IMG/VR virus record: IMGVR_UViG_3300045988_165665
Location: 1 to 46,813 of that record
Origin: a virus
Strand: one strand, 5' to 3'
Length of the DNA stretch: 46,813 nucleotides
Shown: piece by piece, positions 1,170 to 46,813 of the stretch
Layout of the letters: the number at the start of each line of letters is the position of its first letter
How positions within the stretch are numbered: the first letter of the stretch is position 1
Notes under the pieces: generated by a model
Database searches by the model: none
The model's input: only the letters and a program-made list of their open reading frames with translations
Told to the model about the DNA's origin: nothing
Translations under genes and position numbers: made by a program

Positions 1170-1290
1170 AACCACTATATATTGTGTTATATAATATATA
1201 TATTGTTTATATATATGTTGTATATACTTTATATATATTATATATTGCATTTCTATATATATGTTATATAATATATATATACCACATATA
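1170..1290. repeat. TA-rich iterated TATATA(T)TGT-type repeats upstream of parA (candidate centromere/operator)
   Basis: About 8 copies of tatatattgt / tatatatgtt between 1170 and 1290, directly 5' of the ParA RBS. Confidence 0.5.
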
Positions 1291-1302: not shown

Positions 1303-2031
1303 ATGGAAATCATCTCTATAATAAATCAAAAGGGCGGAGTTGGAAAAACAACAACTGCCCAAAATTTAACAGCAGGTTTAAGATTGCAAAATAAAAAAGT
1401 ATTATTGCTAGATTTAGATGCACAATGTAATTTAACTTTATTACAGCAAGCAACTAAATATAAATATAATATTTTAAACGTTCTAAAAAATGAAGTTGAC
1501 ATAAATACAGCTGTCGAAAAAGATTTTATCGCTGGATCTAAGTTTCTAGTTGGTGAAAATACTGAAATTGAGTTAAATAAATTGAAAAATGAATTGCAAA
1601 AATTAAAAACTGATTATGATTATATAATAATTGATACACCACCAGCATTATCTAATATAACTATTAATGCATTAACAGCAAGTACAGATATTATAATAAC
1701 GATAACAGCAGATTTACTACCAATTCAAGGTTTAGTTGATTTATACAAAACTGTACAATCTATACAAAAAACATCTAATAAAAACCTTAATATAAAAGGG
1801 ATCTTAGTAACTAGATTTAATAAACGAACTATATTAGGAAGAACTATGTTAAATAGTCTTATTGATATAGCAGAAAAATTAAATACAAAAGTATTAAATA
1901 CCAAAATAAGAGATAGTATCTCTATAAAAGAGTCCCAAGCAAAAATGACTGATATATTTAAATATGCTAGATACTCTACAGCTGGTCGAGATTATAGAGC
2001 ATTAGTAAAAGAAATATTGGAGGATAAATAA
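1303..2031 (+). CDS. parA: ParA/Soj-type partition ATPase
   Basis: Deviant Walker A NQKGGVGKTTT. AAGGAG RBS before ATG 1303 (track start 1261 is probably too long). IIIDTPP Walker B. Confidence 0.9.
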   Translation: MEIISIINQKGGVGKTTTAQNLTAGLRLQNKKVLLLDLDAQCNLTLLQQATKYKYNILNVLKNEVDINTAVEKDFIAGSKFLVGENTEIELNKLKNELQKLKTDYDYIIIDTPPALSNITINALTASTDIIITITADLLPIQGLVDLYKTVQSIQKTSNKNLNIKGILVTRFNKRTILGRTMLNSLIDIAEKLNTKVLNTKIRDSISIKESQAKMTDIFKYARYSTAGRDYRALVKEILEDK

Positions 2032-2282
2032 TGAGTAACTTTAAAACTTTTGATAATCCAGCAGATATGCTATTAGGTTTAGATGATAACAAACCAGAAC
2101 CTGAAATAATAACAGATAAAAAAAATCTAAAAGAAATTCTTGATTATGAAAAACAAACAAAAAAGAAATTAATAGTCATTGGTCCAAAATTATTTGAAAT
2201 CATAGAAAAAAAAGCTAAAATTGATGGTCGCAGTGTTAATAATTATATAGTTAACGCATTAAAAGAATATGTACTAAAATAA
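2031..2282 (+). CDS. Small centromere-binding partner, RHH (ParG/CopG-like) C-terminus
   Basis: Translationally coupled to parA (ATGA overlap). C-terminal KIDGRSVNNYIVNALKEYV looks like ribbon-helix-helix. Confidence 0.6.
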   Translation: MSNFKTFDNPADMLLGLDDNKPEPEIITDKKNLKEILDYEKQTKKKLIVIGPKLFEIIEKKAKIDGRSVNNYIVNALKEYVLK

Positions 2283-2286
2283 TAAA

Positions 2287-2326
2287 AGAGCCTAGCACAT
2301 AAATTAGTGTTAGGCTCTTATTTTTT
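2287..2326. terminator. Bidirectional intrinsic terminator between parAB and the convergent 62-aa gene
   Basis: agagcctagcac/gtgttaggctct stem flanked by an A-run and a T-run. Confidence 0.75.
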
Positions 2327-2397
2327 ATCCATTTAGAGCTGTTTTATTTTTATCTTAATTTATACCTACAAAGATTTTAAACAGCTTATACAGGCTA

Positions 2398-2586
2398 TTA
2401 TTTTATAGCTTTTTGGCAATCCTTATACCAAAGGCACACATCTATATTACATTGTTTAGTTGCATAACAAGGATTATTTCCCTCTTGCTCCTGCAATATA
2501 TGTATCATATCTGCTTTTTTTGCTTTCTTTGGTAGTATTACAGCTCTATCTTTTGCTATAGTTTTTATTTCTTTTATTGTTGGCAT
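2398..2586 (-). CDS. 62-aa SAP/Rho-N-like protein with C-terminal Cys4 cluster
   Basis: GAAGGTGAG RBS. TIKEIKTIAKDRAVILPKKAKKADMIHILQ resembles a SAP/Rho_N helix pair, followed by CYATKQCNIDVCLWYKDC. Confidence 0.6.
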   Translation of the reverse strand: MPTIKEIKTIAKDRAVILPKKAKKADMIHILQEQEGNNPCYATKQCNIDVCLWYKDCQKAIK

Positions 2587-2961
2587 CTACTCACCTTCTT
2601 TCTTGGTATATATAAATTTATTTAAACTAGGCACTAACTTTAGCTTTACTTCTAAACTAAAAAAGATTACGCTTGGGAGGATTGCGGAGCCGTGTTCTAG
2701 ATATAGTTATACCTTTAGCGTTCTACTAAAGATATAACTATATTTTTTTACGCCTGGTTTTCTTGCGTCTGCCAGTCCAGTTTTCTACTAGTTCCTGCTT
2801 TTACACAGGTAGGATATTAATGGTTACTTAATTGCCCCAACCACCATACGTTTCCATATGTTATCCTAATACGGCTTATAGCTTATGCTACAATCCCAGT
2901 CTGCAACTTACGTTGCCTTTAACCACCGTTGTCTACTTTTAACCATATAAATATATTACTC
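2587..2961 (-). ncRNA. Structured about 370-nt leader or second module of the large RNA
   Basis: No ORF. GNRA hairpins at 2845-2860 and 2903-2916. Three-way junction closed by 2810-2816/2862-2868. 18-bp hairpin 2701-2743 has a G.U only on the minus strand. Confidence 0.5.
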
Positions 2962-2965
2962 AAAT

Positions 2966-2987
2966 AAAAAAAGCCGTCTAAACGGCT
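2966..2987 (-). terminator. Intrinsic terminator (minus strand) inside the ORF-free region
   Basis: Minus strand reads agccgtttagacggct followed by TTTTTTT. Confidence 0.7.
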
Positions 2988-3035
2988 CTCATGAGTTCTT
3001 ATTTACTTAGGCTTATTAAGGGAGTTTAACAACAT

Positions 3036-3213
3036 TCCGCCCTCTTAGGTAAATGCAAATAGTAGAATATATTTGCATGCCCCACCGATTTTCCGCCTCC
3101 GCTGGTGATACGGTTGGTTACTTTCTGCAACCACTTATTTATACACTCCGCCAAGTGTAGCTTTCGCTCTCCTAGAATAAGCATCTAGGCACGCTCTTGA
3201 CGTTTATTCCGCC
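3036..3213 (-). repeat. Four phased GGCGGA motifs (plus strand TCCGCC) at 3036, 3092, 3147 and 3208
   Basis: Spacing is 56, 55 and 61 nt. Two copies share CACTTGGCGGA. One copy sits in the loop of hairpin 3142-3159. Confidence 0.6.
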
Positions 3214-3322
3214 AAGTGATTTTAGATACTAAAAAACACATTTATCATCATTCCCACATGGGAAAAATGTAAATGTGCCTACTATTCCTACCTAAAATCA
3301 TTTTATTTTGTGATATCATATG

Positions 3323-3351
3323 TTGACATATCGCAAATACATAAGTATAAT
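3323..3351 (+). promoter_or_regulatory. Perfect sigma-70 consensus promoter TTGACA-17-TATAAT
   Basis: ttgaca at 3323-3328 and tataat at 3346-3351, with an exact 17-nt spacer. Confidence 0.75.
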
Positions 3352-3357
3352 GAGTTT

Positions 3358-3438
3358 AGAAAGTAACTCGAGCAACTTATGTTGTGGGTAGGTTGTTCGG
3401 CAAAGTCGGTTGTACTGCCAATACAATCGGCTTTTTTT
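3358..3438 (+). ncRNA. About 80-nt sRNA antisense to the 5' part of the long minus-strand RNA
   Basis: Lies between the consensus promoter and the intrinsic terminator at 3405-3438. No ORF. Confidence 0.6.
3405..3438 (+). terminator. Intrinsic terminator of the plus-strand sRNA
   Basis: 10-bp stem gtcggttgta/tacaatcggc (two G.U pairs), 7-nt loop, TTTTTTT. Confidence 0.75.
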
Positions 3439-3439
3439 A

Positions 3440-3468
3440 TTTCTAAAAACTTTTTATAAAATTGTCAA
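3440..3468 (-). promoter_or_regulatory. Second, weaker minus-strand promoter TTGACA-17-TAGAAA
   Basis: Plus-strand tgtcaa at 3463-3468. The -10 element matches 4 of 6. Confidence 0.35.
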
Positions 3469-3483
3469 ATTATTTACATCTTT

Positions 3484-3512
3484 ATAATATATTAAATTAA
3501 ATATATTGTCAA
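3484..3512 (-). promoter_or_regulatory. Near-consensus promoter TTGACA-17-TATTAT driving the long RNA
   Basis: Plus-strand tgtcaa at 3507-3512 and ataata at 3484-3489, with a 17-nt spacer. Lies just downstream of the operon terminator. Confidence 0.65.
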
Positions 3513-3514
3513 TT

Positions 3515-3548
3515 AAAAAGGGCTGCTAAAGATAGCAGCTCTTTTTTT
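3515..3548. terminator. Bidirectional terminator after the ParB-like gene
   Basis: gggctgct-aaagat-agcagctc stem flanked by an A-run and a T-run. Confidence 0.75.
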
Positions 3549-4062
3549 ATTTTATATCCCATGAATTACTAAACTCTTCATTTCTAAATAAAGATGCTAG
3601 TCCGCTCATCTGTTTTAAACGAATAACTTCATCAGCATCCATTCCTAAATGCTTCATTATCCATTTATCAGTTTTCCCCATATCTTTTAATTCTTTTACG
3701 ATATTACTCATTAAATCAACATCATGCGAACCTCTAGCTCTATTATGGCGAATTGTACTTGCCATACGTTCACCAATAGGCTTATTAACTACAGATACTG
3801 GAAGCATTCCTTTTTCACGTTCATAAATATCTTTATACTTCAGCATTATAGAATAGCGGTGAAATCCATCAACTATCTCATACATATCTTCATCTGCATT
3901 GTAATAGCAAACGATAGGCATGGTATAGCCATCTTCTTTTATGCTATCATATAATAATTTCATTTCTGGTGGTGCTACATGATTTGGATTATATTCGTTT
4001 GCACGAATTTTTTCTACTGGTACAGCTATTATATTATAAACAGGGCTTTTAAATTCTGACAT
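3547..4062 (-). CDS. ParB/Srx-fold N-terminal domain protein (IbrB-like)
   Basis: VPVEKIRANEYNPNHV...IVDGFHRY...TIRHNRARGSHD are ParB-nuclease/sulfiredoxin-type motifs. Directly follows the PAPS-reductase-like gene. Confidence 0.75.
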   Translation of the reverse strand: MSEFKSPVYNIIAVPVEKIRANEYNPNHVAPPEMKLLYDSIKEDGYTMPIVCYYNADEDMYEIVDGFHRYSIMLKYKDIYEREKGMLPVSVVNKPIGERMASTIRHNRARGSHDVDLMSNIVKELKDMGKTDKWIMKHLGMDADEVIRLKQMSGLASLFRNEEFSNSWDIK

Positions 4063-4072
4063 GATATCACTC

Positions 4073-5374
4073 CTATAAATTTTTATATTTTTCCATTATC
4101 TTCTGTTGTCTTAGTGTTAAATCTTTGGTTATAGAAAAGGATAAACCTTTGCATATTATGTCATTTTTTATAATGCACATTGCCATTCTTTTCCATGTCA
4201 ATATATCTTGCTTTTTATCTATTGGATGCTCGTCTATTATTCTTTTAAATTTAATTACTTCTTTATCACCTTTTCCTCGCTTGGAAAAACTATGTGTATT
4301 AATAATATCTTCTGGTACAGTTTCTTCTAATTCTTTTATAAAATCATCTTGCATTGGACATCCTGTTCTTTGCCAATACTTAATAAATTTTATAAATTTG
4401 GTTTTATACATCTTTGCCGTATCTGGTGGCAATGTTGACAATAAAAACTTTGTAAAACTCTTCCATGTATGATTTTTTGGCAATGTATATCTAGCGGACA
4501 TTATTTTATTACCGCTATAGATATTACCAAAGTTAGCTCCAGATACACGATTGACTACACGAACCCATAAATCTGGGGCAATAACCTTGAATAAATTCAA
4601 ACCTGCTTTTGCTTCGTTTCCAAATGGTTCATCAACACGCATTTTATCTATTGGAACACCTGCTTTATAAAACAGGTCATAAAGTTTGTTATATGGCTTA
4701 TTGTATTTGCCATAGTAAATCCAATCATCTTTTGTAGTCCAATCATATATTGGGTAAAAATTATAGCAATTATCATCTATTTTTTTGCTATAACTTTTAT
4801 CTTTATAATGATTTTCCTGCTTTCTTTGACTCCCACCGATTGCCCTAAAACGATTAAGGCTTTCATCTGTACGGATGCCTACAAGTTGAGCAGTTTTTGC
4901 ACCTGCTCCATACCATTGAGTAAAGTATTTTATAAATTCCTCAAACGGCATGTTTTCTTTATAAAAATTAAACGGATTATTTTTTAAATTTATAACCCAT
5001 TTATTTTTAGGCATAGGGCGAACCCATATAGGTTCTTTTTCTGGTTCCCACCATATCCATGTAGGATCTAAATAAGATAAACTATTTGGGCTTTCCATTG
5101 GTAGACAAACCCAGTATGGTTCAAGTACATCTTCATTTTCTGTCAGCATCTTTTCAATATACTCTATAGTTATTGGATAAAATGCTTCTAAATCAATAAA
5201 GAGAACACCTAATTTTCTTCCTCTAGCTCTTGCTATATCAATAGCCATGTTAAGAACAACACCGCTATCTTTACCGCCAGAAAAAGATATACAGACTTTA
5301 TCAAATTCATCAAATATGAAGTTTAGTCTTTCAACTGTAGCTTCATATACATTTTTGTTTTTGTATATTTTCAT
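4073..5374 (-). CDS. PAPS-reductase/PP-loop ATP-pyrophosphatase family protein with long C-terminal extension (IbrA-like)
   Basis: PP-loop SFSGGKDS near residue 30. 433 aa. Paired with the ParB-like gene, as in ibrA/ibrB. Confidence 0.75.
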   Translation of the reverse strand: MKIYKNKNVYEATVERLNFIFDEFDKVCISFSGGKDSGVVLNMAIDIARARGRKLGVLFIDLEAFYPITIEYIEKMLTENEDVLEPYWVCLPMESPNSLSYLDPTWIWWEPEKEPIWVRPMPKNKWVINLKNNPFNFYKENMPFEEFIKYFTQWYGAGAKTAQLVGIRTDESLNRFRAIGGSQRKQENHYKDKSYSKKIDDNCYNFYPIYDWTTKDDWIYYGKYNKPYNKLYDLFYKAGVPIDKMRVDEPFGNEAKAGLNLFKVIAPDLWVRVVNRVSGANFGNIYSGNKIMSARYTLPKNHTWKSFTKFLLSTLPPDTAKMYKTKFIKFIKYWQRTGCPMQDDFIKELEETVPEDIINTHSFSKRGKGDKEVIKFKRIIDEHPIDKKQDILTWKRMAMCIIKNDIICKGLSFSITKDLTLRQQKIMEKYKNL

Positions 5375-6758
5375 TGTATTTCTCCTCGTCTACATTTTTC
5401 CAAATAGCAATCTGCTTTTTGAATGAATCTAGTAGATTGCTTTTATTTTGCAAACAATTTGCTATAAAAACATCTATGGTATATTTACAGCATATATCAT
5501 AGATGTTAACCGTCCGCTCCTGGCCAATGCGGTGAACTCTATCTTCTGCCTGCAAACGAGTTGCAAGGTCAAAATCGTTCGAATAGAAGATGATGTTATG
5601 GCAAAATTGAAGATTTAAACCATAAGCTCCACATTGTTTGTTGGCCAACATAAATTGAACATCATTTTTAAACTCAATTCTATTTTGTTGACGTTGTTTA
5701 GGTCTTATTTCTCCAGTAAATTCTACAAAGGTTTTATTCATTGAATCCAAGAGAAATTTTATATCTTTTATTTCATCCTGATATTTGGCAAAGATAATAC
5801 ATTTATCATTGCCAATTTCTTCAATGACTCTTTTTAAACATTGTATACGTGGATTATTTTTCCATGTATACATCTTTTCTGTACGCATCCGTTTTTCTGG
5901 TGCTGATAACACTCTCTTACCAGAAGTAATATGTTGCAATGCAGAAAATAATTTAAATATCGTTTCCGACCGCCAATCTACTACATTAAAAAGGAATAAC
6001 TCTTTTGTTTCGTAATATTCCTCTTCTTGTAAATCATCCAAACAAAAATATCGCATATGATATTCCTTTGGTTTAAGTTCTTTTAATACCTCATCTTTTT
6101 TGATTTGGTACATATATGGAGCTATCTTTTCTGTTAAATAGTCCACATTTAGAACTCTTATAATTTGGTCGGTCGTTATCTCTCTACCACTTGGAAGCCT
6201 TACTTTTTTATATTCTAAGTGATTAGCGGCAAAGCTATAAAAAGACTTGTATCCCAATATCCGCCAATCTAAGATATACCATTGGGCGAATAAGTCCGCT
6301 TCATTCTTAGATATTGGTGTACCATTCAATATCATCTTATATTTGCAAAAAGATGATATTTCTATAATACGTTCCGTTCTTATGGCCAACTTATTTTTTA
6401 CAAGGTTGCTTTCATCCACAATTAGATAAACTTTGTAATTTTTTACTAGCTCTAACAGCTGTAAATATAATCTATCAGAACTAGACAAGCTTTCAATTCC
6501 CTTAATTATTATGTTATTTTCACTAGGTTTTTGACCTGTATGCTTTATAACATCTTCTTTAAGGTTATTTTTAACCGAACAAGGGCATAGCCAAAGTACA
6601 ACATTAACCTTTCCCTTATCCATTTTATTTTTAATAATTTCTAAAGCCGTTCTCGTCTTTCCTGTTCCTTGCTCCATATACAAAGCACCAACTTTAAGCT
6701 TAGAAAGTTTATCGACAGCTTTAGATTGGTATTTATATAGTTTTGTTTTTAAAATCAT
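5343..6758 (-). CDS. SNF2-family helicase/ATPase
   Basis: Motif I EQGTGKT, motif II LIVDESN and motif VI QAEDRVHRIGQ. Coupled to both neighbours. Confidence 0.85.
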   Translation of the reverse strand: MILKTKLYKYQSKAVDKLSKLKVGALYMEQGTGKTRTALEIIKNKMDKGKVNVVLWLCPCSVKNNLKEDVIKHTGQKPSENNIIIKGIESLSSSDRLYLQLLELVKNYKVYLIVDESNLVKNKLAIRTERIIEISSFCKYKMILNGTPISKNEADLFAQWYILDWRILGYKSFYSFAANHLEYKKVRLPSGREITTDQIIRVLNVDYLTEKIAPYMYQIKKDEVLKELKPKEYHMRYFCLDDLQEEEYYETKELFLFNVVDWRSETIFKLFSALQHITSGKRVLSAPEKRMRTEKMYTWKNNPRIQCLKRVIEEIGNDKCIIFAKYQDEIKDIKFLLDSMNKTFVEFTGEIRPKQRQQNRIEFKNDVQFMLANKQCGAYGLNLQFCHNIIFYSNDFDLATRLQAEDRVHRIGQERTVNIYDICCKYTIDVFIANCLQNKSNLLDSFKKQIAIWKNVDEEKYNENIQKQKCI

Positions 6759-9288: not shown

Positions 9289-9317
9289 ATTATACCCTCT
9301 TTAAGAGGGTATGTCAA
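9289..9317 (-). promoter_or_regulatory. Perfect TTGACA-17-TATAAT promoter whose spacer is a 19-bp palindrome
   Basis: Minus strand reads TTGACA taccctcttaaagaggg TATAAT. TACCCTCTT-A-AAGAGGGTA is a perfect inverted repeat. Confidence 0.7.
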
Positions 9318-39084: not shown

Positions 39085-39261
39085 TTATTTTTCCTCCATG
39101 TTCTTATTTAGTGTTATAGCCACAGATAAACCAGTTTCTTTATCTGTTTTAACTGTTTTATTTTTTAAGAGAAAATCAGCAACATCTGGATTATCTTTTA
39201 CATAATTTAAAACCATATCATTAATCATTTCTAAATAATCTAATTTCTCTTGTAAACTCAT
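39085..39261 (-). CDS. 58-aa hypothetical protein
   Basis: Tightly packed between neighbouring ORFs. Below the track cutoff. Confidence 0.4.
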   Translation of the reverse strand: MSLQEKLDYLEMINDMVLNYVKDNPDVADFLLKNKTVKTDKETGLSVAITLNKNMEEK

Positions 39262-39408
39262 TTATTCAATTACCTCATATTCTTCTACCATAGCAACCCC
39301 ATAATATCCAATCTTATTATTTATTTTTTTAACTTCCTCTTGAGCTTTCTCTCTAGTTGCATATATGCCTTGTATTTCATCAAAAGCTTCTACTACATAT
39401 ACTTTCAT
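39262..39408 (-). CDS. 48-aa hypothetical protein
   Basis: ATGA coupling to the upstream gene. Its stop abuts the next ATG. Confidence 0.4.
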   Translation of the reverse strand: MKVYVVEAFDEIQGIYATREKAQEEVKKINNKIGYYGVAMVEEYEVIE

Positions 39409-39863
39409 TTATCTAATCTCCTCATATTTTCTAGTTGTAACAATATAAAGCAATTATGGCTATTTATATCGCAAAGTTTAAAACTCCATGGAACTATAGC
39501 CACTAAATTAAATACAAACCATTTATATATAAATAACTTAGTATTTTTACAGGAATAAAACTTTCTAAAATCTTTTAAGTATTTAATTCTAAGATGCTCT
39601 AATGCCCTTTTCCAACCTTCTATATCATCATTTACATTTCTTGGCATGAGTAAATCTGTATTTCTATTGGGTTTAATTTTGTTTAAATAATATTCTGTGT
39701 ATATGCTAAACTTAATAATTCTCTCTATTAAGCGTCTTATTTGCCTTCCATGAATATCATTGTTTAATTTAGCCTGCATTTTTCTTTTAATATATTTATT
39801 TTTCTTTAAAATTTTTGCTCTTTTATTATCCATATTCTTAGGTAAATTATTAATATATATCAT
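39405..39863 (-). CDS. Hypothetical basic 152-aa protein
   Basis: Coupled ORF. No family recognised. Confidence 0.5.
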   Translation of the reverse strand: MIYINNLPKNMDNKRAKILKKNKYIKRKMQAKLNNDIHGRQIRRLIERIIKFSIYTEYYLNKIKPNRNTDLLMPRNVNDDIEGWKRALEHLRIKYLKDFRKFYSCKNTKLFIYKWFVFNLVAIVPWSFKLCDINSHNCFILLQLENMRRLDK

Positions 39864-40378
39864 TGCTCGTTTTCCTCCGATTTCATTACATCATGTTCTG
39901 ATAAAAATGCTTTGTTTTCTATATCTATTAAACTTATCTGCTCTCGCACTCCTTTTGCATACAATATTGCTTGTTCTTGGAATTCGTTTAATAATTTTAT
40001 GTCATTTTCTGTATACCCAAATTCATTTGTTGATTGATATATCCAAGAATAAAATTTAGTTTCTATTGGTATAGAATGTGGTGCTTTATATAAACCAAGT
40101 AATTTACATTCCTTTAATTCTTCATCTTTCCATTTAAGCTCAATTCCAGTAATTATTATTCTTTCTATTAGAAATTCTGGCAGTTCTAAGTTCCTTATTC
40201 CTGTAAACTTTAATTCTTTTAATATTTCTTCAAATTTTTCTACAGGTCTTTGATTATCTCTTACACTTTTTTCTACACCATTTTCTACATATTTACATAC
40301 AATAACTATACCTTTACGAGTTGCTTTTTTATTTATTTCTTTTATATAGATACCATCTATTACTATTCCTTCCGCCAT
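39860..40378 (-). CDS. Hypothetical 172-aa protein
   Basis: Coupled ORF. No family recognised. Confidence 0.5.
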   Translation of the reverse strand: MAEGIVIDGIYIKEINKKATRKGIVIVCKYVENGVEKSVRDNQRPVEKFEEILKELKFTGIRNLELPEFLIERIIITGIELKWKDEELKECKLLGLYKAPHSIPIETKFYSWIYQSTNEFGYTENDIKLLNEFQEQAILYAKGVREQISLIDIENKAFLSEHDVMKSEENEQ

Positions 40379-42522: not shown

Positions 42523-42866
42523 GTAAAATCACTCTTTCTACCTGTCCTTGCGTAAAGTTTATACTCCGCCATTTTTTGTATATATACCATGTTGGGGTAA
42601 TAAGCCTTTACTATTCCATAACTTAATCCTGTCTTTTGTGATATATCTCTAAATTTACAAATAAAATCATTACCTCTTCTTATTTTTAATTTTCTCTGTT
42701 CTATTATCTCCTTTCTCTTCTTTAAAAATTCTCTTAACATCTTATTTTTTCTCAATCTCTTGCATTCACTTGAACAGCATTTAATACGTGAACTTGTTGT
42801 TTTAAATGTTGCACCGCAATATTCACATTTTTTCTCTATTATCTTGGGCTTATACAATTCATTCAC
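42465..42866 (-). CDS. Zinc-ribbon plus HTH-like 133-aa protein
   Basis: CEYCG...CCSSEC, then a basic helix and ISQKTGLSYGIVKAY. Confidence 0.5.
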   Translation of the reverse strand: MNELYKPKIIEKKCEYCGATFKTTSSRIKCCSSECKRLRKNKMLREFLKKRKEIIEQRKLKIRRGNDFICKFRDISQKTGLSYGIVKAYYPNMVYIQKMAEYKLYARTGRKSDFTWLKAINTQTESVFTMYIN

Positions 42867-43713
42867 CCCAATCTTCTATTACCTCTGGTACATCTATATT
42901 TTCCAAAGGCTTTCTATATTTACTCTTTTTAAACTTCTGATACTGGCTATCTATTCTGTACATGGTTATTCTTTGTACCCTGCAACATTCATAATAGCCA
43001 CCATTATCTGCCCAGCCATAGCCATCATATATACTATTTTTGTCTATTATGTAGCCTTTTGGGGCTTTTTTTGTTGCCATGTTCCACCATCTATTATTTT
43101 TTATAACTTTGGTGGTTACTAATGGCATTTTTAAATTCTTAGATGCACAAAATCTTTTCTTATGCACCTTTTCTTTTCTGTAGAATTGTTCTCTACTATT
43201 TTTAATCAAATATGAAGCAAGCTTTTTGTATTCCCCACTGTAATCTAAATGTCTTATCGTTACTCTTGGGTATTTACATTCTTCTGTACCAACTATTCTT
43301 TGCCATGCTTTAGTTAGTACATCAGTATCGTGCTTGTTCATCACAATATGAAAGTGGATCATACCTTTTTTTGTGATGCCAGCCACGTAAATATACTTGA
43401 GCTTCTTTTGCTCTCTTTTGTATATTCTTCTCACTGTGTCCAGAAATGTATTTATATTTTTTCTGGCCACATCTATATCTATTTTTTTATGTGGTGGATA
43501 ATTTAGCGTTAAGAATAAATCTCCACCTTCAAAATTTTCATTTAATTTGTATCGGCAGATACGCTCTGCTTTTTTGTCTTGGTAACGCAACTGCTTCAAC
43601 GGTGTTTTACCTAGTGCAGGGCCATTAGGTATATTCTTTCCATATCTGCCACTATAGTATTGGAACTGGTCTATATAATTTTTTCCATATACCTTTTTCT
43701 GCACTAGTGCCAT
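42859..43713 (-). CDS. HUH-superfamily rolling-circle replication initiator (Rep_1/pC194-phiX-like motif order)
   Basis: Motif I LFLTLNY, motif II IHFHIVM and motif III LASYLIKN. AAGGAGG RBS. Confidence 0.75.
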   Translation of the reverse strand: MALVQKKVYGKNYIDQFQYYSGRYGKNIPNGPALGKTPLKQLRYQDKKAERICRYKLNENFEGGDLFLTLNYPPHKKIDIDVARKNINTFLDTVRRIYKREQKKLKYIYVAGITKKGMIHFHIVMNKHDTDVLTKAWQRIVGTEECKYPRVTIRHLDYSGEYKKLASYLIKNSREQFYRKEKVHKKRFCASKNLKMPLVTTKVIKNNRWWNMATKKAPKGYIIDKNSIYDGYGWADNGGYYECCRVQRITMYRIDSQYQKFKKSKYRKPLENIDVPEVIEDWGE

Positions 43714-43798: not shown

Positions 43799-43827
43799 TT
43801 GACACCTAACCATTATTGATATATAAT
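43799..43827 (+). promoter_or_regulatory. Perfect TTGACA-17-TATAAT promoter antisense to the rep leader
   Basis: ttgaca at 43799-43804 and tataat at 43822-43827. The spacer contains TTGATAT. Confidence 0.75.
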
Positions 43828-43833
43828 TTAATT

Positions 43834-43937
43834 AAACTTTATATGTGGTTAGTTTTAAGCCCTTAGATTATTCGCAGTAACCTAAGGGCTTCGCCATTTT
43901 TTTAAGCCAGTAAACGTTTTGTGTTTATTGGTTTTTT
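43834..43937 (+). ncRNA. About 100-nt countertranscript (ctRNA) complementary to the rep mRNA leader
   Basis: Two hairpins (43857-43891 and 43906-43930), the second followed by TTTTTTT. No ORF. Confidence 0.55.
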
Positions 43938-44326
43938 TATTTCATAAAATCTTTAATTTTAATTACGATTTCTTCTTCATTCTTTTTTAAATCAGGAAGA
44001 ATTACATATTTTTCAATTGTTTCTTTTTCTTTGTATTTTGCTTTAACTTCTAAGTATATACAATCATCTTTAACTTCATAAAAATGATCGCCTTCACAAC
44101 CAAAATCATTTAATTTATATACAATGTTTTCATCTTTTTCGTTTATTCTTGAACATCTTAAATCTGCTTTATCATTAATCATTTTTATAAGTAAATTTTC
44201 TTCACTATTTTTAACCATTACATATTCGCCATTGATTAATTTTCTTAAAGCTTCTCTAAAACTAATTTCTTTCATATTGTTTTTCCCCAATCTTTCTATT
44301 ATTTGTCTAAAACTTTCATCTTTCAT
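43937..44326 (-). CDS. Hypothetical 129-aa protein
   Basis: ORF in the early operon. No family recognised. Confidence 0.5.
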   Translation of the reverse strand: MKDESFRQIIERLGKNNMKEISFREALRKLINGEYVMVKNSEENLLIKMINDKADLRCSRINEKDENIVYKLNDFGCEGDHFYEVKDDCIYLEVKAKYKEKETIEKYVILPDLKKNEEEIVIKIKDFMK

Positions 44327-44330
44327 TTAT

Positions 44331-44672
44331 TTACCTCACAATCTTTTCTATAAGAGCTGGTAAATCTATGCCATGCTCTTTTTTTATTTTTATTAAATCT
44401 TCATCTTTAAAATCTATAATTTTAGTTTTTTCATCACCTTCATATGCATATTCAATGCTTATGAAGTCTATTCTTTTCTTTACATCTGTCATGTAGCTAT
44501 CTTCTGGTTTAAGTAATGAAAATCCAGCAGTATGATTTAAATTACTCACATCAGCTATACAATCACCTTTTTTAACAAATTCTGTTAAAAATCCAGAGCT
44601 GTTAGCATGTATAATTGTTCCTCCATTGTGTAATATTTCTAAAGCCTTATAAAAATCAATTCTTTTTAGCAT
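44331..44672 (-). CDS. Hypothetical 113-aa protein
   Basis: ORF in the early operon. No family recognised. Confidence 0.5.
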   Translation of the reverse strand: MLKRIDFYKALEILHNGGTIIHANSSGFLTEFVKKGDCIADVSNLNHTAGFSLLKPEDSYMTDVKKRIDFISIEYAYEGDEKTKIIDFKDEDLIKIKKEHGIDLPALIEKIVR

Positions 44673-44674
44673 CT

Positions 44675-44776
44675 TTATTTTTCCCCTTTCCTTTCTTTGT
44701 GCATCCCTAAAGACTCTATGGCAAATAGTATTGCCCCTTTAGTTGTTATTTTCTTTAGGTCTTTAACTTTTAACAT
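44675..44776 (-). CDS. 33-aa micro-ORF
   Basis: GGGGAAAG sits directly before the ATG. Fills the 123-nt gap. Confidence 0.25.
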   Translation of the reverse strand: MLKVKDLKKITTKGAILFAIESLGMHKERKGEK

Positions 44777-44795
44777 CTTTCCCCAACCTAGTCTT

Positions 44796-45158
44796 TTATA
44801 TAGCATTTACATTTTTCCCAATTCTTTTATATTTTTTTACCAACTCACAAAAATCTTTTGTTATTTCAAGAGCAATAGGTATTTGCTCTTTAATCATTTT
44901 TGGCATACTTTCAAGTTCTAACGAACTTTTTATAACGCAATTTAAAGCGTTTCTATATTCTGGATTATTTATATTAATCTCATAATCCAAAAGTATTTTA
45001 TTTGACTTTTTAACAAAAATTTTATGTGGTTGTAATGGCTTATAAACTATAGCTATGTGATTTTCTTTTTGTTCTAAAATTAATTCTTTTATCAATTCCT
45101 TTTTTACTTCTTCACTAATAGAACGCTTCAACTCATCAATATCAACACTATATGCCAT
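44796..45158 (-). CDS. Hypothetical 120-aa protein
   Basis: ORF in the early operon. No family recognised. Confidence 0.5.
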   Translation of the reverse strand: MAYSVDIDELKRSISEEVKKELIKELILEQKENHIAIVYKPLQPHKIFVKKSNKILLDYEININNPEYRNALNCVIKSSLELESMPKMIKEQIPIALEITKDFCELVKKYKRIGKNVNAI

Positions 45159-45175
45159 TTCATCACCTTCTATTT

Positions 45176-45955
45176 TTAATTGATGCCATACTGTATAGAC
45201 ATCTTCTTTAATACTGCTATTGCACTATTAATAAGCCTGGCATCTTCCTCGATAATATCGAGTTTATTAATTTCTTTTATTTTGTTTTTATTTAATCCAG
45301 CTTTATAAGCTCTTTCTTTCTTGTTTTTTAATCTTATATTCAAATTGCAATGTGCTTCATTTTCCAGACGCTCATAAAATTCATGTCTTATCGCTTGATA
45401 TGGATTTTCCATATCTAAGCAAGGATAATATTTTGCAATTTTTCTCGTTACTGAACCAAAATATAGACGCCAATTACTGGCGTTTATTTGTTCGAGTTCT
45501 TTTATCTGCTCAATATTAGATTCAATCTTAGCAAGACGATTAGAATGTTCTTCTAATCGTTTTTGCTGTTCTTTCATCAACTTGATTGATTGTTCAAGAA
45601 TATCGAGCTGTGTTAAAGGTTTTTGCTGTTGCATTAACAACTGTTTTTCCATCTGCTCAAATTTTGTTACATATTCAGCAGTGAATAATACACCTTTTTC
45701 ACCCGTTAACTTATTTGCGACCATGTCGCAACCTTTACGAGTAAGATTGTAACAAGGTCTAGTTTCTCTTTTACTATCTACATAACTTGATTTAATAAAG
45801 AAATCTAACGAACGCAATTTTGCGTTGGTTAAAATTTGTACATAGCCATCAATACTACGCATTAAATCTGCATGACGTTTTCCAATCATTTCAGCCACCT
45901 GACGACTATCTACATAAATTTTCCCATTTTCATTAATTAGTTGTAATTCGTTCAT
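45176..45955 (-). CDS. Rha-family phage regulatory protein/antirepressor with coiled-coil C-terminal domain
   Basis: GGGGAGGG RBS before ATG 45955. IYVDSRQVAEMIGKRHADLMRSIDGY is the pRha motif. Confidence 0.85.
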   Translation of the reverse strand: MNELQLINENGKIYVDSRQVAEMIGKRHADLMRSIDGYVQILTNAKLRSLDFFIKSSYVDSKRETRPCYNLTRKGCDMVANKLTGEKGVLFTAEYVTKFEQMEKQLLMQQQKPLTQLDILEQSIKLMKEQQKRLEEHSNRLAKIESNIEQIKELEQINASNWRLYFGSVTRKIAKYYPCLDMENPYQAIRHEFYERLENEAHCNLNIRLKNKKERAYKAGLNKNKIKEINKLDIIEEDARLINSAIAVLKKMSIQYGIN

Positions 45956-46527: not shown

Positions 46528-46813
46528 ATGGAAAAAATAAATGAACGAATAAAACAAATAAGAAAAACACTTAATTTATCTCAAGCTGCTTTCGGTAAAA
46601 AAATTGATGTTAGTTCTTCAGCAATAGGCTGTTGGGATATTGGTATACGACAACCAAAACCTATCCACATTTCAGCAATTTGCAATATTTTTAATATAAA
46701 TGAAGAATGGTTATTACATGGAACAGGAGAAATGTTAAAAAAAGACATTGATAATAATCCTGCTTTAACACAAATAGCTAAAGAATATAATTTAACTTCA
46801 ACACAAAAAAAAT
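46528..46813 (+). CDS. XRE-family CI-like repressor, N-terminal HTH part (continues in frame into 1..304; 166 aa in total)
   Basis: GGGAGG RBS 7 nt before ATG 46528. MEKINERIKQIRKTLNLSQAAFGKKIDVSSSAIGCWDIG is a classic HTH_3. ATG at 46732 (= position 8) is in frame (204 nt). Confidence 0.85.
   Translation, partial: MEKINERIKQIRKTLNLSQAAFGKKIDVSSSAIGCWDIGIRQPKPIHISAICNIFNINEEWLLHGTGEMLKKDIDNNPALTQIAKEYNLTSTQKK
46725..46813 (+). repeat. Terminal overlap identical to 1..89
   Basis: Same 89 nt as the window start. Confidence 0.95.

Follow-up and report, generated by a model that had tools for sequence, protein, structure and literature searches.

At positions 3323-3512, the convergent promoter pair and the small antisense RNA are real and conserved, and this part of the first-pass annotation of the DNA is confirmed. 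The long RNA that the small RNA is predicted to control is large, folded, and previously undescribed, and it adjoins the partition genes. We consider it quite possible, if short of probable, that the region 2587-3546 (hereafter, the module) harbors the control and initiation functions of an antisense-controlled, RNA-based, Rep-independent plasmid replicon, which maintains these elements as plasmids. Throughout, “the window” refers to the whole stretch of 46,813 nt that was analyzed; it is a complete 46.7-kb circular phage-plasmid with a HUH Rep, and the carriers of the module are gut elements of Negativicutes type. Judged by comparison among relatives, both promoters, the structures and strands of the two RNAs, their terminators, the non-coding status of the region, and the linkage to par across different backbones are well supported.

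The features concerned are the following, with positions in the window:

1261/1303-2031, plus strand: parA (Pfam AAA_31/CbiA/ParA)
2031-2282, plus strand: ribbon-helix-helix partner of 83 aa, Arc-like repressor family
2586-2398, minus strand: ORF of 62 aa immediately after D2, with AGGTGA as its ribosome-binding site
2587-3546: non-coding gap that holds the module
about 2961-2620, minus strand: domain D2, multi-branched and closed by long-range helices, predicted to be reached by read-through of T1
2990-2962, minus strand: T1, the intrinsic terminator that closes D1 (2990-2969 in the scan), giving an RNA of about 515 nt from a start at 3477
3232-2991, minus strand: domain D1, helices P1-P9 and a possible pseudoknot
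3300-3289 paired with 3228-3217, minus strand: helix P0, which precedes D1
3280-3231, minus strand: T_att, an attenuator-like intrinsic terminator (long hairpin, then U6) between the antisense target and D1
3299-3287, minus strand: GAUUUUAGGUAGG segment of the leader
3292-3477, minus strand: leader of the long RNA, as read from the sequence, which also holds the complement of the plus-strand promoter
3441-3358, minus strand: antisense target within the leader
3512-3484, minus strand: long-RNA promoter TTGACA-17-TATTAT, an 11/12 consensus match, predicted start about 3477
3323-3351, plus strand: small-RNA promoter TTGACA-17-TATAAT, a 12/12 consensus match in the promoter/terminator scan
3358-3441, plus strand: small antisense RNA of about 84 nt
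3368-3400, plus strand: SL-A, the first hairpin of the small RNA
3402-3441, plus strand: SL-B and its U-run, together an intrinsic terminator (3402-3434, then T7, in the scan)

The predicted start of either transcript was set 7 nt after the −10 box. About 40 related loci were collected. They amount to 34 distinct sequences, grouped in three clades (A, B, and C), and all family members found lie on contigs of at most 77 kb. When 2587-3546 was searched by blastn in its distant mode against 72,556 plasmids (PLSDB), the sole match was the Megamonas funiformis plasmid NZ_CP048628.1. A blastn search of 50,697 phage records returned nothing, and an anchor pattern run against 185,579 representative genomes (GTDB) gave no homologue of the module, only 51 chance matches. 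Similarly, two further patterns searched in viral contigs yielded only chance matches beyond the known relatives, and there was no circular mini-plasmid among the short contigs that bear the module.

It is worth beginning with the small RNA. Its promoter had been described as perfect and indeed is, with TTGACA-N16/17-TATAAT kept in 34 of 34 non-redundant relatives; both hexamers are invariant, whereas the spacers differ. Within clade A, the mean pairwise difference is 0.000 in both plus-strand hexamers and in the −35 box of the minus-strand promoter; the two spacers have values of 0.32 and 0.25. The whole 46.8-kb window contains five sites that match the promoter consensus with one mismatch or fewer, where 1.4 would be expected by chance, and the facing pair accounts for two of the five. 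Since the hexamers and the hairpins are conserved among relatives, the arrangement of promoter and small RNA is more than chance.

The first-pass annotation had proposed an sRNA of about 80 nt ending at a strong terminator, which agrees well with the 84 nt found here, and had placed its pairing at roughly nt 40-120 inside the opposing transcript; the complementarity runs from about nt 37 to 120 of the minus-strand RNA begun near 3477. The small RNA is predicted to fold into two hairpins (−29.2 kcal/mol, z = −4.9), and the comparative evidence for this fold is strong. Overall, 98% of alignment cells pair, whereas sliding the partners leaves 27-47%. Among relatives, SL-A shows pairing in 100% of cells, and its one-sided changes are of the kind A-U to G-U or C-G to U-G, so that the pairing is valid on the plus strand only; in SL-B, 7 of the 12 pairs show compensatory changes. 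All clade A members share one and the same SL-A 3′ arm (GGTAGGTTGTTCGG). The loops of the small RNA and the terminator hairpin of SL-B, by contrast, are hypervariable beside invariant flanks, and the control region has been swapped between clades, as in contigs L102 and L099, which combine D1 and D2 of clade C with a small RNA of clade A type. Such hypervariability next to invariant flanks, together with exchange between clades, is what one would expect of an incompatibility determinant.

The opposing promoter, claimed at 3484-3512, likewise holds up in the scan, and its −35 box is invariant in clade A. It lies directly past the terminator (3539-3522) of an upstream minus-strand operon. A minus-strand promoter of the type TTGAC(A/G)-N16-18-TAT is present in 28 of the 34 sequences, and clades B and C have an equivalent; five of the remaining six carry TTGACA with TAATAT (alignment read by eye), and the sixth is a contig that is cut off there. 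The long RNA is non-coding: neither by position nor by sequence was a conserved ORF with a ribosome-binding site found in eight representatives of the three clades, on both strands. The claimed architecture, a long untranslated RNA beside parA whose 5′ part is covered by a short and strongly promoted countertranscript, recurs in all three clades. The first-pass annotation had also named type I toxin-antitoxin loci as an alternative (hok/sok, fst, and txpA types). This we reject because an ORF with a ribosome-binding site, such as a small toxin would need, is not conserved across clades and the indels of the long RNA are not multiples of three; the Rfam antitoxin RNA families were also unmatched.

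Downstream of the antisense target, 27 of the 28 members of clades A and C have a hairpin that abuts a U6-7 run (−9 to −43 kcal/mol), whereas no T_att is evident in clade B. These hairpins vary in sequence and length among members, with 0-7 G-U pairs each in the minus-strand reading. In folds of the nascent leader from clades A and C, the UGCC..CCUACC part of the target pairs with GGUAGG..GGCA just upstream of the attenuator, and this helix overlaps the T_att stem by only 2-3 nt. Thermodynamic folding revealed no clear anti-terminator, and T_att forms whether or not the target is blocked.

Beyond T_att lies domain D1. Pairing holds in 91.5% of cells compared with 37-46% when partners are slid, 20 pairs are changed on both sides compared with 0-8, and the fold z-score is −5.2. 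Its 51 G-U cells against 7 A-C cells indicate the minus strand. All three clades retain the T1 hairpin and a U7-9 run; in contigs L004 and L009 the hairpin is formed in another way. For D2, RNAalifold gives 52 pairs, 25 of which have compensatory changes, and folding is more favorable for the minus strand than for the plus (−28 vs. −20), with a fold z-score of −3.8. No promoter of its own was recognized for D2, which could alternatively be a structure of single-stranded DNA. The whole window had no match in Rfam 15 at gathering scores, and with permissive thresholds (E up to 10) the region 2200-3700 gave only terminator-like chance matches that were far below those scores; a scan for tRNA and tmRNA found nothing.

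The module always adjoins a ParA/ribbon-helix-helix partition operon, with its D2 side facing that operon, and the order of module and par is the same in clade C and in the clade B contig L080. Three backbones carry it, namely HUH-Rep phage-plasmids (such as the window), phage-plasmids with a DnaB-type replication module (clade C), and the conjugative plasmid of Megamonas. The last of these is 46 kb in size and encodes a type IV secretion system, a MobA/MobL relaxase, and several toxin-antitoxin systems. Its largest non-coding gap is occupied by the module and immediately precedes parA. The Megamonas ParA at 39241-39978 is 49.6% identical to ParA of the window. At the protein level, the two elements share only ParA, the 62-aa ORF, an HTH protein, and an SLT domain, and the RNA module is essentially the sole non-protein block common to both. 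The 62-aa ORF has an equivalent position in clade C. Its Megamonas homologue (59% identity) sits right after a serine recombinase gene, 7 kb from the module, and because of this location the ORF is not an obligatory part of the module.

No Rep is annotated or detectable by Pfam in the Megamonas plasmid, for which 20 hypothetical or poorly named proteins were scanned. The plasmid could nevertheless encode an unrecognized Rep, and it has six perfect 14-nt repeats at 1245-1328 that are iteron-like. Several candidates for other partnerships were considered and dropped. The ParB-like and PAPS-reductase neighbors are not partners of the module, as the right flank differs among close relatives; a 539-aa Megamonas protein does not qualify as a shared Rep, as the window lacks it; and the module is not the omega-RNA of the Megamonas TnpB, which lies 3 kb off and is apparently missing from the near-identical contig L134 (judged from ORF sizes).

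How might such a locus work? We infer a repressive role for the small RNA, exerted through termination or refolding, and a role in replication for the long RNA. Under this proposal, the long minus-strand RNA would begin near 3477, and the 84-nt countertranscript, which would be constitutive and strong, would cover its first 120 nt and act as a negative regulator of copy number and incompatibility. Pairing of the small RNA with the leader would abolish the long-range helix that joins the target to GGUAGG..GGCA, and loss of this helix would favor T_att and/or the alternative fold, helix P0, at the entry to D1. As a consequence, less functional D1(-D2) RNA would be made. The folded D1-D2 RNA, or transcription across this region, would act positively, by priming or activating DNA synthesis close to the boundary of D1 and D2.

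This replicon reading is partly supported by the comparison of backbones, in that the module and the ParA/ribbon-helix-helix operon appear to be what the phage-plasmid and the Rep-less Megamonas plasmid have in common. Several observations weigh against it. The long RNA contains two intrinsic terminators, of which T1 is conserved with its U-run, an unlikely site for a stable RNA-DNA primer hybrid, and the folding of D1 and D2 is far more elaborate than a primer requires. In addition, a separate RNA replicon is not required in the window or in clade C, because HUH rep or DnaB-type genes are present there; the HUH rep gene of the window has a candidate countertranscript of its own (43799-43934), and the two together could be the plasmid-state replicon of this phage. 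DnaA boxes are neither clustered nor enriched, and GC skew tracks gene orientation without an independent signal.

The same observations must be weighed under other readings. Elaborate folds backed by covariation, closure by long-range helices, and a D1 that ends in a defined terminator are typical of stand-alone functional RNAs, and large ornate RNAs such as ROOL and GOLLD occur in prophages. The D1-D2 RNA might be a structured non-coding RNA of mobile elements that works in trans and outside replication (as a decoy against defense, in exclusion or immunity, or by scaffolding or inhibiting a host protein), with its level tuned by the small RNA. The replication genes that the window and clade C possess would fit with this, as would the frequency with which accessory modules are swapped between phages and plasmids. 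We nonetheless regard it as rather unlikely, given that no Rfam family was matched (ROOL and GOLLD included), that linkage to ParA/ribbon-helix-helix is strict in three backbones and the module is confined to contigs of extrachromosomal size, that the hypervariable antisense loops suggest a specificity determinant, and that the Megamonas plasmid, which is without a recognizable Rep, still needs an origin. A second possibility starts from the location of the pair in a plasmid-stability region beside par. A stable and toxic long RNA could be neutralized by an unstable antisense RNA, which would amount to post-segregational killing by RNA only (type I-like but without a toxin peptide, or type VIII-like). 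Convergent promoters with a perfect antisense promoter are in keeping with such an addiction module, and modules of this kind spread among unrelated elements, the Megamonas plasmid with its several toxin-antitoxin systems being a case in point. It is improbable all the same: the classical form is excluded on the ORF and indel evidence given above, known RNA toxins are small and nothing suggests toxicity of a two-domain RNA of 600-850 nt, and an attenuator between target and body is foreign to these systems.

There are two further readings. D1 and/or D2 may act as single-stranded DNA, i.e., as a single-strand origin or a primosome-assembly site for the lagging strand after HUH-Rep rolling circle replication or conjugation, in which case the promoters would belong to an unrelated small-RNA pair. 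That the folding is extensive and strand-specific, that the region is non-coding and common to a HUH-Rep phage and a conjugative plasmid, that D2 lies beyond a terminator and is without a recognizable promoter, and that under the primer model the displaced strand and the folded strand share polarity would all accord with this. However, D1 is flanked by conserved transcription signals (the promoter, T_att with its U-run, and T1 with its U-run), clade C has the module but DnaB-type rather than HUH replication genes, and 51 G-U cells suit RNA better than DNA, such that we find the idea decidedly improbable. The long RNA could also be read as a cis-acting leader, an attenuator or riboswitch-like sensor for the 62-aa ORF at 2586-2398, which in clades A and C lies past D2 on the same strand and has a good ribosome-binding site, with two terminators in the path. 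We have rejected this as very unlikely indeed, because the ORF is unlinked in clade B; there, AT-rich DNA and the tail of a convergent gene come after the module, and the homologue is 7 kb off behind the recombinase gene. In addition, 850 nt would be an extraordinary leader for a protein of 62 aa.

To our knowledge, an RNA-only start of replication is known in just two plasmid families, ColE1 and the MRB (marine RNA-based) origins of Vibrio, both proteobacterial. With due caution, we put forward that the module may represent a third family of plasmid replicons, of independent origin, that are initiated by RNA and need no protein. It would be the first outside the Proteobacteria and the first in phage-plasmids; an unusually large, folded two-domain RNA would replace Rep, and the 84-nt countertranscript, through its hypervariable loops, would set copy number and incompatibility. 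If true, a third RNA-initiated system in gut elements of Negativicutes type would mean that the strategy is wider than thought, would offer a compact origin and incompatibility toolkit for genetically hard hosts such as Megamonas, and would account for the integrase-less persistence of these phage-plasmids. Even if the replicon idea is wrong, what would be left is a new family of large structured RNAs (two domains, about 600 nt) that is absent from Rfam and occurs in mobile elements only, and the small RNA provides a ready-made regulator for probing its function.

How does the module compare with systems that are already understood? The first-pass annotation had likened it to ColE1, and part of this comparison stands. 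As in ColE1/pMB1, a short and strong antisense RNA opposes the 5′ part of a long untranslated RNA (about 500 nt) transcribed from the other strand, a geometry that also applies to MRB; loop-loop recognition, control by refolding of the long RNA, and Rep independence would be expected here too under our proposal. RNA II of ColE1 forms a persistent hybrid at the origin, where RNase H cuts it to prime Pol I, and no plasmid protein is needed. What does not carry over is the notion of a plain primer-like transcript: the long RNA has an attenuator-type terminator in clades A and C, two folded domains, and a terminator between them, whereas RNA II of ColE1 has no attenuator-type or intrinsic terminators and no such domains. 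The Rfam model of RNAI (three stem-loops, about 108 nt) was not matched, and the small RNA here has two hairpins. No Rop homologue was identified; the 62-aa ORF is similar in size and position, without detected similarity.

The attenuation systems of pT181, pIP501, and pAMbeta1, which also belong to Bacillota hosts, resemble the module in that a countertranscript acts on a leader and a terminator follows just past the target (clades A and C). They differ in the regulated product, which is a rep ORF there and would be a structured non-coding RNA here. In addition, clade B is without the terminator, and the Rfam countertranscript families were unmatched. As to a preemptor pairing that competes with the terminator, as in pT181 and pIP501, our folding did not demonstrate one, the long-range helix of the leader overlapping the T_att stem by only 2-3 nt and T_att forming in both states. 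A second Bacillota precedent is the class E theta replicon of pLS20 from Bacillus subtilis, described as a Rep-less minimal replicon, about 1.1 kb long and rich in dyad symmetries, that sits beside the par genes on a conjugative plasmid (Meijer et al. 1995, as summarized in PMC4490491). To the extent that this summary describes it, pLS20 is like the module in being Rep-less, dyad-rich, adjacent to par genes, and of a Bacillota host, and the summary describes no origin RNAs. Its sequence (NC_015148.1) was in the plasmid collection searched and was matched by neither query.

In layout, the module is also like the MRB origins of Vibrionaceae, type pB1067, which comprise 500 bp with no Rep and for which replication was demonstrated experimentally (Le Roux et al. 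2011; PMC3035462). Their RNA I has 68 nt and two stem-loops, including a rho-independent terminator, and their RNA II of at least 465 nt covers RNA I (PMC3035462). A core of about 110 bp, conserved among MRB origins, encodes their RNA I. The two systems appear unrelated in sequence, judged indirectly from the blastn search of the plasmids, which matched no Vibrionaceae plasmid, and they differ in host, the module being found in gut elements of Negativicutes type that include phage-plasmids. The long RNA of the module combines an attenuator terminator with an internal one and with two domains backed by covariation, whereas no structure is described for the MRB RNA II; and replication, shown by experiment for MRB, is proposed for the module. 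Both are non-coding regions of origin size with two convergent transcripts and no Rep gene within them. The small RNA has 68 nt in MRB and 84 nt here, in each case with two stem-loops of which the second is the terminator, and the long RNA (at least 465 nt vs. about 515 nt to T1) fully covers it near the 5′ end. In MRB, finally, variable loops set the specificity, as we predict for the module, and in both the family is spread over very different plasmids.

The gap at window positions 2587-3546 holds no ORF longer than 52 aa, and a promoter/terminator scan places in it two promoters that face each other, with 133 bp between them. Sites within one mismatch of the promoter consensus number 5 in the 46.8-kb window against 1.4 expected, and the facing pair accounts for two of these. 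With transcription starts set 7 nt past each -10 box, the plus-strand transcript (the small RNA) would run from 3358 to ~3441 and fold into two hairpins (-29.2 kcal/mol, z = -4.9); it would be complementary to nt 37-120 of the minus-strand transcript (the long RNA), whose predicted start is ~3477. The first-pass annotation had described this arrangement, and its coordinates hold; the observation of facing promoters and a small antisense RNA is confirmed. The features needed below are as follows.

Features of the RNA region, with one repeat array and one gene lying elsewhere (window positions unless stated)
3515-3546, bidirectional: hairpin closing the upstream minus-strand operon (scan)
3512-3484, minus: long-RNA promoter, TTGACA-17-TATTAT, 11/12 consensus (scan)
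3402-3434, plus: small-RNA terminator, then T7 (scan)
3323-3351, plus: small-RNA promoter, TTGACA-17-TATAAT, 12/12 consensus (scan)
3232-2991, minus: D1, a domain of the long RNA, nine-helix model
2990-2962, minus: T1, the terminator closing D1, hairpin and U-run
2990-2969, minus: terminator as placed by the scan
~2961-2620, minus: D2, a domain of the long RNA; the minus strand folds better
NZ_CP048628.1 45285-45375 (= L001 4410-4500): TTTAGTAGYT repeats of clade B, also in L134
42859-43713, minus: HUH Rep, PF23343 domain match

Searches by blastn gave no match to the RNA region among phage records and a single one among plasmids, the Megamonas funiformis JCM 14723 plasmid NZ_CP048628.1. Pairwise alignment of this plasmid with the window reveals conserved blocks at window 2620 to 3240 and no sequence conservation in the small RNA itself. 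The wider family was gathered from IMG/VR and metagenome contigs by an anchor pattern built on two invariant blocks, and nhmmer was used to tell true members from chance matches. Some 40 loci yield 34 distinct sequences, which form three clades: A (window-like), B (Megamonas-like), and C (intermediate). The anchor pattern found no member in 185,579 representative genomes; every member lies on a contig of ≤77 kb, and the samples are mostly human-gut. The largest, the 76.6-kb metagenome contig ODBF01000064.1, carries the module twice (L072 and L117, ~38 kb apart) and represents a circular clade C element of 38 kb, assembled head to tail as a concatemer. No family in Rfam 15 matches the RNA region, and the RNA family is new to that database.

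The small RNA varies in sequence while keeping its form. Its promoter (TTGACA-N16/17-TATAAT) is found in 34/34 sequences with differing spacers; within clade A, diversity is zero in the hexamers and the minus -35 box as opposed to 0.25-0.32 in the spacers. In a 16-sequence alignment, the two hairpins have 98% of cells paired, compared with 27-47% with slid partners. One of them, SL-A, is 100% paired, and each of its five variable pairs changes on one side only (A-U to G-U, or C-G to U-G). Such swaps pair on the plus strand and would read as A-C mismatches on the minus strand, which argues that the structure is selected as plus-strand RNA. The other, the terminator SL-B, has compensatory changes in 7/12 pairs. 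From these alignments, we judge that the small RNA is under selection. Diversity is highest in the loop of SL-A (0.30) and throughout SL-B, stem as well as loop (0.27-0.37), and the SL-A 3' arm (GGTAGGTTGTTCGG) is invariant across clade A. Some relatives have an SL-B that is an exact reverse complement of the one in others (e.g., L007 and L006); with the hairpin thus found either way round in close relatives, either RNA presents its loop sequence. Clade C inserts additional TTTAGGCA units, and the clade B small RNA, 134-190 nt long, has 5-8 tandem copies of the 10-nt TTTAGTAGYT, their number varying by plasmid. Two loci (L102 and L099) join a clade C D1/D2 to a clade A-type small RNA, which shows that the control region is swapped as one unit.

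The minus promoter occurs in all three clades, as TTGACA-17-TATTAT or TATCAT in A and C and as TTGACG-17-TATTAT in B. Downstream of the antisense target, 27/28 clade A and C members have T_att (window 3280-3231), a long hairpin (-9 to -43 kcal/mol) against a U6-7 run, in several unrelated sequence versions with 0-7 G-U pairs in the minus-strand reading. By these features we class T_att as an attenuator-like intrinsic terminator; it is absent from clade B. The D1 model has 91.5% of cells paired against 37-46% in slid controls, both-sided changes in 20 pairs against 0-8, and a covariation score of 0.36 against ≤0.10. Its G-U cells outnumber A-C cells by 51 to 7 overall (31 to 3 in clade A), an excess that identifies the strand as minus. 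The T1 hairpin and U-run are present in all clades, with different sequences in L004 and L009. For D2, 52 pairs are predicted by RNAalifold, with compensatory changes in 25 and long-range closing helices included, and single-sequence folds reach z = -5.2 for D1 with the leader end and z = -3.8 for D2. We recognised no convincing promoter ahead of D2; the domain would need T1 read-through, or could act as single-stranded DNA.

Folding of the nascent leader suggests how the small RNA might act. Within the target, UGCC..CCUACC pairs with GGUAGG..GGCA immediately ahead of T_att (in clade C, the same helix is UGCCGA/UCGGCA plus CCUGCCUAAA/UUUAGGUAGG), and this same GAUUUUAGGUA segment has an alternative partner in the invariant UAUCUAAAAUC at the D1 entry, with which it can form helix P0 (3300-3289 with 3228-3217). 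In clade B, inspection by eye shows the target's repeated CUACUAAA units to be complementary to a UUUUAG motif in the equivalent segment. The small RNA, once bound, would thus be expected to release this segment and change how the leader folds near T_att and P0. Since T_att forms in both states, energies alone do not reveal a clean anti-terminator; the small RNA might work by attenuation, refolding, RNase III cleavage, or promoter collision.

The module sits in three different backbones. The window is a complete circle of ~46.72 kb (nt 1-89 recur at 46724-46813) with phage lysis, tail, and regulatory genes, Rha, and RecU. Its lysogeny-side block comprises a cI-like HTH gene, a variable gene, parA, a ribbon-helix-helix gene, a 62-aa ORF, and the RNA region; near relatives retain the block and differ in the right flank, where the window has cargo (3547-6758, minus: ParB_N-like, PAPS-reductase/DUF3440, and SNF2-type helicase genes). 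Clade C has the same block (HTH, ParA, ribbon-helix-helix protein, ORF62-like, RNA) and an early region with DnaB-type helicase and ArdC-like genes, and also carries holin and amidase. Clade B is a conjugative plasmid with VirB/Trb genes, a MobA/MobL relaxase, topoisomerase III, ArdA, SSB, and several toxin-antitoxin systems. The Megamonas plasmid has no annotated Rep, and a Pfam scan of 20 of its hypothetical or poorly named proteins found no Rep domain; its largest gap, 44262-45774, is filled by the RNA region, directly ahead of the parA that spans the record start. On the clade B contig L080, a second ParA/ribbon-helix-helix operon lies against the D2 side as in the window, and the ParA of this second operon is the one homologous to the window's.

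In their proteins, window and Megamonas plasmid have in common only ParA (49.6%), the 62-aa ORF (59%), an HTH protein, and an SLT domain. Judged by this context, the module travels with partition genes across backbones whose replication or transfer machinery is unrelated. Its position and behaviour are those of a basic replicon.

Several neighbouring features deserve mention. The 62-aa ORF (window 2398-2586 and L186 5981-6190, both minus; L186 is the Megamonas plasmid) weakly matches an endonuclease VII C-terminal region at its N-terminus, and its C-terminus is Cys-rich; in clades A and C it comes after D2, and in the Megamonas plasmid it stands directly behind a serine recombinase gene. Immediately ahead of the homologous parA genes (window 1176-1281; L186 39128-39228) are TA-rich tandem repeats of 11-14 nt, probably serving partition as centromere or operator. 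A perfect TTGACA-17-TATAAT promoter at window 9289-9317 (minus) has a palindromic spacer (ACCCTCTTAAAGAGGGT), probably an operator inside the promoter. At L186 1245-1328, in the gap after parAB, stand six perfect tandem 14-nt copies of AACTATTATTATAT, with no recognisable initiator gene nearby. A countertranscript candidate not remarked before occupies window 43799-43934 (plus), with a 12/12 promoter (43799-43827), a hairpin at ~43858-43892 (read by eye), and a terminator (43904-43934). It lies between two minus-strand genes, an ORF (44326..43937) and HUH rep (43713..42859), faces the rep leader, and looks like a 70-105 nt countertranscript to it, as known in rolling-circle plasmids.

How, then, should the module be read? 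An antisense-controlled RNA replicon is the interpretation we favour, if tentatively. A primer is unlikely to end at T1, given its U-run, and would not need domains as elaborate as D1 and D2. A countertranscript against the HUH rep leader is typical of plasmid copy control, and this locus could be the window's maintenance replicon; the AACTATTATTATAT repeats of the Megamonas plasmid could be iterons of an unrecognised initiator. DnaA boxes show no enrichment, and GC skew gives no independent origin signal. Because of these caveats we go no further than tentative support for the replicon, and a trans-acting RNA of other function, although rather unlikely, is kept as a serious rival. The rest of the probability is divided among three readings: an RNA-only addiction module, a single-stranded DNA origin, or a cis-acting leader. 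The first-pass annotation had likened the architecture to ColE1 primer control and to type I toxin-antitoxin loci, and had suggested a plasmid-maintenance replicon. Its interpretation is supported in part: the replicon stays plausible, with comparative support, and the toxin-antitoxin reading is rejected, as no ORF in the RNA region is conserved across clades.

Among known replicons, the MRB plasmids of Vibrionaceae are close in geometry; they are the only RNA-initiated plasmid family described besides ColE1 (PMC3035462). Their Rep-less 500-bp origin encodes two convergent transcripts: RNA I (68 nt), with two stem-loops of which the second serves as terminator, and RNA II (at least 465 nt), which spans RNA I. 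RNA I represses replication, and its loops set incompatibility (PMC3035462). The arrangement here is near-identical (small RNA of 84 nt, long RNA of ~515 nt to T1), but the sequence is unrelated. The Rep-less class E theta replicon pLS20 of B. subtilis (PMC4490491) has no similarity to the RNA region; T_att is reminiscent of pT181 and pIP501, although here no rep ORF lies behind it. If the replicon function is true, the module would be a variant of a rare known kind of replicon, and itself new. By analogy, we would place it as working like an antisense-controlled RNA replicon, outside the MRB/ColE1, pLS20, and pT181/pIP501 families.
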